From a virus (Duplodnaviria; Heunggongvirae; Uroviricota; Caudoviricetes), in IMG/VR virus record IMGVR_UViG_3300029735_000262, positions 1 to 35,868 of that record: a stretch of 35,868 nt of DNA, one strand, 5' to 3'. Below, one piece after another: positions 27,001-30,000 of this stretch; position 1 is the first letter of the stretch; every line of letters begins with the position of its first letter. The position numbers are program-made.

Positions 27001-30000
27001 ATAGTTGTCCAGATCGCGGATCCGGTTATCCGGAGGAAACAACACGATCTCCACTGAAGCAGGTGCCGACGTTGTTTTCGGCAGACGACGTAACTGCTCA
27101 ACTATTGCTGCGCACGCCGCGCTCTGAAATTTTCGCCCCGCCTCGCTTATCAGGCTCTTACCAGCAAATGCCCCTTTGTTGGGGTGTCGCCAGTACGTGT
27201 TCACACTGGGCGGGAAAGGAAGGATCAACTTCATACTTTCAGGCCCCTCTCATGTAACCAGTGGGCTGCACGCAACCTAGCGTTCTCCTCACCGGCAAGC
27301 AGTGCGCGGATGATACCGACCGCTTCGCTGTCGTCGTCCTTCACTGCGGTATGAAGCGTGATCCCCCGGGCCACGCCACGCTTTATCGTGATGACGCCTT
27401 TTTTCTCCAGTGCGCGAAGATGCTCCACCGCTGCATTCACTGAACGGTATCCCAGCATGGTTGCCACCTCCTGATTGGTTGGCGGGAAGCCACGTTCTTT
27501 CTGGTAAGAAATCAGCATATCCAGCACCTGCTGCTGGCATTGAGTTAACGTCGTCATGCCGCCATCTCCCTGACCAGTTTTTCCGCCTGCTGGCGAACCT
27601 GCGCCAGAAAGGCCTCACCACATGCCTCAAGTTCATCGCGCCCGATGTAGCTGATTGCCGGTCCCTTCCAGGTCTTGTCGAAAACAGCAATAGCACCAGC
27701 GAAGAAAGCGCCTGTCGGCACCTGCTTCTCATCCTTCGGGATAAACCAGGCAGGCAGTTCAAAACCAATACGCCCGCGAATAAAAGCAATATGGTCTGCA
27801 TCTTCCGGCCACCAAACTTCGCTGGTGGCAGCTTTGATCAGGAAAACATAGCGCCCGCCCTTATCACGCATGGCACTGGCATGCTTCATGATGTAACGCA
27901 TGCCGGTGATGTATTGCCCCTCATGCTGACTGGCGCGGCTGTATGGGGGATTACCAAAGGCAGCACCTTTAAGCTCCGCAAGACGTTCAGACCAGTCATG
28001 CGCCAGCGCGTTGTCTTCCGCCGTGTAATACGCAGCACATTTGGCGTTATCACCGTCAGTGAACAGATCCAGAACAAACGGGCCAAACAGGGTGTTAATT
28101 CCCCAGAAAATGTTGTCCGGCGTGCGCCACTGATCGCCCACGTCCTTCAGTTCATGGGCTGGTTTGTTCCGCAGTTCCACCAGCGCCTGGCAATATTTAT
28201 TACTCATTAAGCCCCCACGTAATTCCCTGACAGATACCACTCTTCACCCGATGCAGCGCGCTTGCTGCTTTTCCGTAAGCACCGCTCACGACGCGCCAGA
28301 AAATTGTTTCGTTCTGGCTGGGAGTGGCTTTCACGGAATGCCGCCATCCACACGGTTGCAGCACGACGGTATAAGCCTCTTGACTCCAGTTCTTCAGCCT
28401 GGCGGGTCAGGCACAAAATCACCCGGGGATCGTTAGTGCCGACATAGAAATTGCGCACAGGTCTGGTTTCACGAACTGGTTGTGGTTCCGGCTCCTGCGC
28501 TCTCTCAGTCAGGCGCGGGAAATGTCTGCGTGTATCCTCTTCACAACGGTGAGCCACACGCCCACTCTGACGTAACTTGCTTGCTGACTGCAGAACTCGC
28601 TGCCGTGAGTAACCTGCAAAAGCATCCGCAATGTCTCCGGAAGTACACCCCGGATGGGCTTCAATGAATTTCTGAACGTCATTCAAAAGGCTCATGATCA
28701 CCCCCTGAATCCTGCCGGGATCTGGCTGTAGTCCACATTGTCGTAACTGGCTTTGAAGTACGGGTCTTCGCGTTTTTCTGTGTACGTGCTGACGGACGGC
28801 GATAAGCGCAGGGAAAGTTCATCCCATTTTTCCCGCAGCTTCGACGGGCTGAGCACGTTACGGCACCAGAACGGGTCGCGGCTGACACGGTTGTACATCT
28901 CGCAGATTTGTTTGTGGGTACGACCGTCCTGTACACACATCAGGCGAATTTCATTTGCCCAGGCTGTCCAGTTCGGTTCTTTCGGACGTACCACCTCGCC
29001 GTCACATTCGGCGGCCTGCTCGTACAGGGCGATGATTTTTTTCCAAAGCCACTGTGCGCAGGTCAAATCATCCTGCGTCCCCCACTGGCGCTTTTTAGGG
29101 CTGAATACAACCGCATCAGGATGGCGAGTTAAAAAATCCTGTTCAGCCGTCTGCGTGTCCGGTTGCGAAGCGTCCGGACGAGAAGGTTTTTTATCTGACG
29201 GATCATGTTTTGATTTTACTGACGGATCCCCGCCAGATTCTGACGGGTGAAAACCCGCTTTTTTGCCAGATTTCGACGCATCAAATTTTGACGGGTCAGA
29301 TTTTGATGCGTCAGATTTTGATGCGTCAGATTTTGACGGGTCAGAATCTGACAGTTGAGAAAATGCCGCTGCCTGAAGCTTCGCAACGTTAAGCTGATAA
29401 ACATTCGACGCATTGCGGTTACCCTGGCGACGCGCCTTACGCGTTAACCAGCCTTCTGCTTCCAGCCGTGCGATAGCCGTCCTGACGGTACTCATCCCCG
29501 CGCCAATCTGACGGGCAATAGTTTCAATTGATGGCCAGCACACACCTTCGTCATTACTGAAATCAGCCAGGCGGGCCATAATTGCCACGCTGGATAATTT
29601 CATGCCTGATGCAGCGCAACCATCCCATACATAGCCGGTTAATTTAGTGCTCATGACCGACCTCTATTTCCCTGAATTTACGACGAAACTGTTCGAGCGG
29701 GCTGAAGCACTCATGCTCATAGCCTTCACGGAGGTAGATAACCCGTTGTGTTTCCGGCTCCCAACGAATGACTCTGACGGGTACTCCGTAGTGATCTTTG
29801 AACCAGCGGTTAACTTGTCGCAAAGGACTGTCTCCTTTTGCCGGTTAAAATCACCCACAGCCCACTCTGCAAAGCTGTGGGTTACAATTACCCTGCCACC
29901 TGGTACATTTACTGCATAGCAATACTCCACCTTCGCTTTTCCACCCGGTACAGGAAGCGCAATCAGTTGCGAGCGACGGTAGTGTGTTGTTAAACTGTTC

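Follow-up and report, generated by a model that had tools for sequence, protein, structure and literature searches.

The 35,868-nt stretch analyzed here (the window; IMG/VR virus record IMGVR_UViG_3300029735_000262, Caudoviricetes) carries on its minus strand a replication initiator gene of the YfdO/SfII-SfIV type (28698..29654), an open reading frame (ORF) of 318 amino acids. The encoded protein has an N-terminal winged helix-turn-helix domain, a C-domain related to that of lambda O and a C-terminal tail resembling that of the host protein DnaT. Between the two domains, a run of 15-bp DNA repeats spans codons 102-156 of 318; that the array falls within the minus-strand initiator ORF had been predicted earlier from the sequence, and it does. 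We consider it very likely that these repeats are the iterons of a prophage lytic origin situated inside its own lambda-O-like initiator gene.

Tandem Repeats Finder reported one strong tandem array in the window, at 29267..29345, with a period of 15, 5.3 copies, 85% matches, a score of 109 and the consensus CAGATTTTGACGCGT. Read in the minus-strand coding frame, six contiguous head-to-tail 15-bp units, the predicted iterons, occupy 29262..29351. In coding order from 29351 these are TCAGATTCTGACCCG, TCAAAATCTGACGCA (twice), TCAAAATCTGACCCG, TCAAAATTTGATGCG and TCGAAATCTGGCAAA, encoding SDSDP-SKSDA-SKSDA-SKSDP-SKFDA-SKSGK. The units follow the coding-strand pattern TCA-RAA-TCT-GAC-NCN, and their 11-12-bp core, TCARAATCTGA(C), has the dyad symmetry TCAGA.TCTGA; each unit is partly palindromic, and degenerate copies flank the array on both sides. 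An isolated seventh unit, CCGTCAGAATCTGGC, lies at 29232..29246 (CCG TCAGAATCTGG C, codons PSESG). It is kept in nearly all family members, with the E139 GAA and S140 TCT codons 97-100% fixed, and is similar to an element of lambda and phi80, TCAGAGAATTCTGGCGAATCC. Two GATCCGTCAG half-units, each with a Dam site, are found 24 bp apart at 29219..29228 and 29195..29204. With up to one mismatch allowed, the core TCARAATCTGA occurs nine times in the window, seven of these within 29233-29351, compared with a mean of 1.42 in dinucleotide shuffles, of which 0 of 100 reached nine; the array is non-random. On the promoter-distal side of the iterons, the stretch 29187..29222 is 72% A+T, which places it in the top 0.2% of 36-nt segments of the early operon and makes it a candidate DNA-unwinding element. 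When 27500-31000 was scanned against Rfam, the single match was to a eukaryotic microRNA family and below threshold (31 bits, with a threshold of 97); it appeared on both strands because the repeats are palindromic, and we rejected a known RNA family at this position.

The original prediction had described about eight copies of a 15-bp unit at 29211-29356. The period and the unit are real and the array is where it was placed. Eight is reached only by counting degenerate copies, the strict count being six tandem units and one isolated unit, with two half-units; the consensus from Tandem Repeats Finder differs by one base from the unit given before, and the element reaches about 25 bp further left, to about 29187.

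The winged helix-turn-helix domain (codons 1-99; 29358..29654, minus strand), with its recognition helix around STVRTAI, is the predicted iteron-binding domain. Its Pfam matches are to HTH_36 (residues 23-70, E=4e-11) and to GntR-like and DnaD_N-like winged helices only. No lambda-type O N-terminal domain was among the Pfam matches of the initiator, and membership of the N-domain in the lambda O N-domain family was rejected in favor of HTH_36. The helical C-domain (codons 167-285; 28800..29156, minus strand) had no match in Pfam, NCBIfam or a PDB sequence search, and its homology to lambda O surfaced only in tblastn against phage genomes, where initiator residues 171-282 align to lambda O residues 171-270 with 39% identity (E=1e-17). 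By blastp, the initiator is 30% identical to lambda O over 216 amino acids (E=7e-26), in a pairwise alignment that begins at residue 70, and 36% identical to phi80 gp15 (E=3e-25). Together with a match to PHROG phrog_391, "replication initiation O-like" (E=5e-135), this bears out the earlier designation of the gene as O-like. Because the C-domain aligns to both lambda O and phi80 gp15, the C-terminal half of the protein is a true relative of O, joined to an N-terminal half that is a different winged helix. An AlphaFold2 model built from 77 homologues has a confident winged helix at residues 1-99 and a confident helical C-domain at 167-285, and predicted local distance difference test (pLDDT) scores below 50 at residues 103-165, exactly the repeat-coded segment. 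The repeat-coded peptide is thus predicted to be a disordered linker, and the six units encode SKSDA-like peptides within it, as anticipated when a low-complexity SKSDA linker was proposed.

A homologue scan with one genome per species yielded 79 loci from many Enterobacterales genera. The N-domain type of the window was present in 65 of the 79 genes, 63 of which could be anchored on a conserved GGDPSV motif. We counted codons in 293 repeat units from these 63 genes, representing about 40 genera, and used residues 1-90 of the same genes as a control. The central serine of the unit is encoded by TCA 263 times, by TCG 28 times and otherwise twice, compared with AGC 214, AGT 102, TCC 94, TCG 84, TCA 76 (12%) and TCT 57 among the 627 serine codons of the control. 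Lysine in the units is AAA 211 times and never AAG (AAA/AAG 160/110 in the control). The non-synonymous change from AAA to AAT, which replaces lysine by asparagine, occurred 30 times in the units while the silent change to AAG never occurred, and a change of serine to leucine through TCA to TTA is also seen. Fisher tests on the codon counts gave p=1e-33 and p=6e-122, uncorrected for phylogeny and with the control on the same tree. In a codon alignment, we averaged the share of the commonest codon over the conserved amino acid columns, which came to 0.53 for 66 columns of the N-domain, 0.89 for 17 of the tandem region and 0.93 for 15 of the flank. Within the flank, GTA is the only codon used for Val146 and GAT the only one for Asp143 (65/65) and Asp151, so that the family retains both GATC sites without exception. 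Synonymous change has saturated the N-domain of these genes. Conservation at the protein level only had been named in the original prediction as the outcome that would speak against an origin; across the 63 homologues, synonymous sites are far more conserved in the repeats than elsewhere in the gene, which indicates that the constraint there acts on the nucleotides.

Repeats and N-domains vary together. Five N-domain types correspond to five different repeat cores at the same position in the gene. Type A, that of the window, combines the helix STVRTAI with the core TCARAATCTGAC and with SKSDA and similar peptides, and both helix and core are conserved within the type. Type B pairs the helix TTVSAAI with the core TCAA-N3-TTGA in 15-bp units of the form YCAA-NNN-TTGA(C/G), encoding PPNID, PPTVE or GLTVD. 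Type C has the helix STVITAI and the core (T/C)CAGAA(T/A)CTGAA (TCAGAATCTGAA), encoding RSESE or RPETE. A further type, represented by locus L051, has the core TCAC-N3-GTGA, and the SfV orf39 type has the helix RSVMNHI and a 21-24-bp unit, GTGAATCTCCTGCACTACCCCCTA. In types B and C the peptide varies while the DNA core stays (YCAA-NNN-TTGA and CAGAAnCTGAA, respectively). All 15-bp types have in common their period and the outer arms, TCA...TGA. The GATCCGTCAG pair is shared by types A-D despite their differing iterons and is therefore not type-specific; it probably serves unwinding or a host factor. At many loci, an N-domain and repeats of the window type (65-83% identity over residues 1-173) are joined to another C-domain, Phg_2220_C. 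The N-domain and the repeats thus behave as one evolutionary module, with C-domains swapped among relatives, and moving together is what would be expected of a binding domain and its own sites.

The allele of SfV orf39, mEp460_043 and an Stx2c phage occupies the same map position in SfV, mEp460 and Stx2c phages. It resembles the window gene in gene order, in an N-domain of the HTH_36 family, in an internal tandem DNA repeat that codes for a low-complexity linker, and in its last 24 residues, including SQIPAGFRG, but differs in the recognition helix, the repeat units and the C-domain. Its internal repeats (L001 3391-3545; same in L002-L004) comprise about 4.6 copies of the 21-24-bp unit and 2.6 copies of a 12-bp unit, TGGTTCATTGAC. 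The 24 residues shared with the window protein mark a mosaic joint inside the gene.

As the original prediction had proposed, we compared repeat number among related prophages, and it varies. A 401-nt query that covers the array matched E. coli alleles of more than 92% identity over 371, 386 (much the most frequent length), 387, 401, 416 or 431 nt, so that alleles differ from the window by -2 to +2 units in 15-bp steps; full-gene match lengths of 942, 957 and 972 nt agree with such steps. Distant homologues carry from about 1-3 units (P0016, P0029, P0032) to about 9 (P0042). Of 5426 complete E. coli genomes, 2957 have a match to the origin segment, and 1945 of these carry most of it; the copy in E. 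coli FORC_042 is 98-99.8% identical. The module is present in the Shigella serotype-converting phages SfII and SfIV, in yfdO of the E. coli K-12 CPS-53 remnant, and in prophages of Salmonella, Klebsiella, Pantoea, Providencia, Yersinia and others, and the gene is annotated in these genomes only as "helix-turn-helix domain-containing protein." The K-12 copy (L006, L007; NC_000913.3 2473280-2473586) is truncated N-terminally: yfdO still has a repeat array, one unit shorter than that of the window, and the domain predicted to bind it is gone.

The layout is the textbook lambdoid arrangement of an ori inside O. The repeats sit where the proven origins of the lambda and phi80 relatives sit; the C-domains are homologous and the annotated iterons are in an equivalent place. 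In lambda the annotated iterons are mid-gene, in the interdomain-linker codons of the initiator and at the same relative position; they are dyad-symmetric, and an A+T-rich stretch lies transcriptionally downstream of them (PMC7466680). The homologous C-domain and a number of iterons that differs between relatives are further points of likeness. The lambda sites, by contrast, are 18 bp long and spaced 20-24 bp start to start, whereas those of the window follow every 15 bp strictly head to tail; the N-domain of the window protein is HTH_36 and not of the lambda O N-domain family; a P gene follows O and none follows the window initiator; and O ends in ...TDWIYGVDL where the window protein has a DnaT-like tail. 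Gene 15 of phi80, whose C-domain is the one aligned above, contains four annotated 15-16-bp binding sites followed by an A+T-rich stretch and GAGAATTCTGACGAATCCTCTGAC. Its sites are 20-21 bp apart and of other sequence, its N-domain is unrelated at the sequence level, and a P-like gene 14 is present. That the annotated iterons of both phages lie between the N- and C-domains, as here, upholds the parallel with lambda drawn in the original prediction.

Just past their A+T-rich regions, lambda (L085 560-600) and phi80 (L090 10775-10815) share the element TC(A/C)GAGAATTCTG(G/A)CGAATCCTCTGAC, and the window has a similar counterpart, TCAGAATCTGGCGGGGATCCGTCAG, at 29219-29246. This element, which resembles TCAGAGAATTCTGGCGAATCC and is independent of N-domain type, may have been part of the origin before the N-domains diverged.

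In the iteron plasmids pSC101, R6K, RK2, F and P1, a winged-helix initiator recruits the host DnaB-DnaC complex without a plasmid-encoded loader (review, PMC4980987). As proposed for the window, direct repeats of the initiator site lie beside an A+T-rich unwinding element. The initiators of these plasmids are of the Rep_3 type, whereas no Rep_3 domain was found by Pfam in the window, where the repeats are moreover intragenic and their 15-bp unit falls short of the 17-22 bp usual in plasmids. The DnaA box TTWTNCACA, with three occurrences expected, is absent from the 35.9 kb of the window, and we rejected a DnaA-dependent origin. Origins are reportedly predicted inside many phage initiator genes in the 2006 review by Weigel and Seitz. 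The SfIV and SfI genome papers and the paper on the Eru replication region make no mention of iterons or an origin for this module, and an earlier description elsewhere is possible.

Several observations weigh against an origin at this position. The literature searched contained no binding or origin-activity experiments on this initiator family. The codon statistics carry no phylogeny correction, and slippage or gene conversion homogenizes repeats and can mimic conservation within one genome; neither process explains why dozens of genera use identical codons. At 72% over 36 bp, the A+T-rich stretch is only modestly enriched, and it is weaker than that of lambda. A 15-bp spacing puts neighboring sites on different faces of the helix, unlike the spacing in lambda. 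Finally, the existence of alleles with about 1-3 units (P0016, P0029, P0032) means either that a long array is non-essential or that those prophages are defective. In lambda, two iterons and the A+T-rich region were reported to be enough for unwinding and in vitro replication, and iteron number is four in lambda and six in Stx phages (PMC7466680); with such tolerance, copy-number variation is compatible with an origin.

Three other explanations of the array deserve consideration. The repeats could be nothing other than a slippage-prone low-complexity linker, (SKSDA)n, whose copies were recently duplicated and whose DNA has no function of its own. The predicted disorder of the encoded segment, the in-frame variation in unit number and the alleles with very few units would all fit such a linker, but it leaves unexplained why synonymous sites are nearly frozen across genera in genes with a saturated N-domain, why the DNA core persists through amino acid changes, and why the synonymous AAG is never used when the non-synonymous AAT is common; we regard it as very unlikely. 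Constraint on the mRNA, for example on a structure or a pause site that modulates initiator translation, would also conserve synonymous sites, and the dyads can be drawn as small hairpins. With arms of 3-5 nt and a center of 1-3 nt, these are too small for stable RNA hairpins, and the co-variation with the DNA-binding helix and the lambda precedent favor sites in double-stranded DNA, so that an RNA element seems hardly plausible at all.

More weight, if still little, belongs to a real protein-binding array that is not an origin, such as an autoregulatory operator, a site for the PerC/YfdN or CII-like regulator, or an incompatibility or exclusion element. Conservation at the DNA level shows that there is a function without saying which, and the PerC-like neighbor, translationally coupled to the initiator, contains a winged helix as well. 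Yet the repeat type tracks the N-domain of the initiator and not the neighbors, which vary among PerC-like, methyltransferase, P-like and DUF1627 genes; the order of iterons and then A+T-rich DNA, and their position, copy the proven origins of lambda and phi80; and no other candidate origin array is present in the window. We therefore think a binding array without origin function improbable and favor iterons of an origin.

The whole early-right operon, from cro to Q, lies within the window. It begins with cro (30543-30803) and a CII-like gene (29999-30550), followed by YmfM-like and DUF4222 ORFs and then the initiator. Downstream come a 164-amino acid PerC/YfdN-family gene (28207..28701, minus strand) with an N-terminal winged helix, a Dam (GATC) methyltransferase gene of the same operon (27554..28240, minus strand; Pfam Dam, E=2e-45) and, in order, LexA DNA-binding-domain-like, RusA, KilA-N regulator, DUF968/HNH and Q-like antiterminator genes, the last at 24654-25016. 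The original prediction had called the 164-amino acid protein unknown; it belongs to the PerC/YfdN family (Pfam PerC, E=7e-9; PHROG 1324, E=4e-78). The start of its gene overlaps the stop of the initiator gene (GTGA), and it is the immediate neighbor of the initiator in 26 related loci and the commonest neighbor of initiators with a tail ending in GFR. In this protein, a MarR-like winged helix at the N terminus is joined to a C-terminal region of the PerC/ANR type, and we rejected the protein as a hidden loader, finding no ATPase or P-like signature. Annotation with Pfam and PHROG revealed no helicase, loader (P/DnaC-like) or primase gene in the cro-to-Q operon, and tblastn searches with lambda P, a phage DnaC-like protein, E. 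coli DnaC and DnaB had no match in the window. The earlier statement that no DnaC- or P-like loader is obvious downstream can accordingly be extended to the whole operon.

Methyltransferase genes come after the initiator in many related loci, and the phage Dam may be linked to the two invariant GATC sites of the putative origin. It is possible that methylation is connected with origin firing, or that SeqA binds at the two sites. Two further observations concern other genes of the window. The minus-strand ORFs 29644-29823 and 29664-30002 overlap by 160 nt in different frames and match DUF4222/phrog_1343 (E=2e-34) and the YmfM-like phrog_1170 (E=8e-68); either both are real genes or one is consistently mis-called. 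Inside a cI-like repressor gene (30901-31593), a 9-bp tandem repeat, TGATGTCAT, is present in three copies (77% match) at 31221-31247.

The tail of the initiator, SQIPAGFRG (codons 310-318; 28701..28727, minus strand), is identical in eight of nine residues to SQIPPGFRG of E. coli DnaT (primosomal protein I) and is terminal in both proteins. The initiator ends in ...DYSQIPAGFRG and E. coli DnaT in ...SEPDSQIPPGFRG (dnaT, L084 1979-2518); the tail peptide of the initiator that is the counterpart of the DnaT tail is NVDYSQIPAGFRG. The likeness is restricted to the extreme C terminus: the DnaT DNA-binding domain, PF17948, was not detected in the window protein, which has no DnaT N-domain and, unlike DnaT, is predicted to be origin-specific by virtue of its winged helix. 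Among about 110 clusters of DnaT from Enterobacteriaceae, the ending SEPD(S/N)(Q/H)IPPGFRG hardly varies; of the clusters in the initiator family, 15 end in ISEPDTEIPPGFRG and 17 in DNVDYSQIPAGFRG. Relatives of the window initiator match the DnaT tail over 13-19 residues; for a Kosakonia initiator (L032), the last 19 residues are RDINAISRPDTTIPPGFRG, compared with RDVNTVSEPDSQIPPGFRG in DnaT (E=6e-8). A DnaT-like tail was found on three unrelated C-domains, namely lambda-O-like, Phg_2220_C and SfV-type. The variant GFRGAK was considered as evidence of co-evolution and rejected; it occurs in some DnaT orthologues and in some initiators, never in the same genera.

We looked within about 3 kb of each initiator for homologues of P, DnaC or DnaB and sorted the loci by tail. 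All 8 loci with a tail of the form ...W(N)xxE(A/G)W(E)xxL, including that of Rahnella (L087), have a lambda-P-family gene (PF06992) after the initiator. At 52 of the 55 loci with a GFR tail, there was no such homologue; one has a DnaC-like gene, and at the other two the sole match was that of the DnaT query to the initiator's own tail. Among 19 loci with other tails, 17 had none. This association of tails such as WNSPEAWENTL with a P-family gene emerged from the genes just downstream of the initiator at L011, L012, L013, L015, L016, L051, L063, L073 and L087. An initiator of the Serratia type (L068 3001-3903) ends in ...GGTDDDFI and is followed by a gene for a DnaC/IstB-like ATPase (3887-4636). 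The C-terminal tail of SSB is DDDIPF; the Serratia-type ending is reminiscent of this acidic tail and may be another borrowed host docking tail.

The association of tails with neighboring genes suggests that the last ~10 residues specify the loading partner. Initiator tails would then be swappable docking motifs that choose the loading route, and a GFRG tail would use whatever binds the tail of DnaT. Because the phage is without an analogue of P or DnaC and its tail copies the C terminus of DnaT, the helicase would most likely be brought in by whatever the DnaT tail binds in the host (DnaB-DnaC or PriA/PriB) and not by a phage loader. We put forward only tentatively, as a possibility with somewhat less than even chances, the fuller proposal that a tail of ~9-19 residues is a docking motif taken from host DnaT, which lets a solo O-type initiator enter DnaT-dependent loading (DnaB-DnaC or PriA/PriB) and so replaces P. 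In a cryo-electron microscopy study of the preprimosome from 2026, the C-domain of DnaT docks on PriA and the tail is not discussed (PMC13377028). The same work counts against such a role, since the N-domain of DnaT, not the tail, was proposed as the recruiter of DnaB-DnaC (PMC13377028).

Based on these comparisons, we infer the following course of initiation. Upon derepression, transcription from the cro-side promoter would yield the 318-amino acid initiator, and dimers of its N-terminal winged helix would bind the dyad core TCARAATCTGA every 15 bp, at six tandem copies and one isolated copy. The resulting nucleoprotein complex would destabilize the adjacent A+T-rich, GATC-bearing stretch at 29187-29228. 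The lambda-O-like C-domain and the C-terminal tail would then bring in the host replicative helicase. Compared with the lambdoid type, what differs is the strict 15-bp head-to-tail unit, the HTH_36 N-domain, the lack of the P partner that defines the O-P module, and the DnaT-like tail.

In conclusion, an origin at this position is in itself of modest surprise, and the hypothesis on the tail is of more interest. Placing the origin gives a concrete annotation for a very common module. If the repeats are indeed iterons, the module would show cleanly how a protein code and a DNA code can overlap and would provide a set of natural specificity variants, each with a recognition helix paired with its 15-bp dyad. 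If the tail acts as proposed, a restart pathway would have been turned into an origin-specific initiation pathway, and the C-terminal tail of an O-type initiator (GFRG, or WxxxL with a P gene) would decide which loader it uses. In that case, the phage proteins would also offer a lead to what the DnaT tail does.

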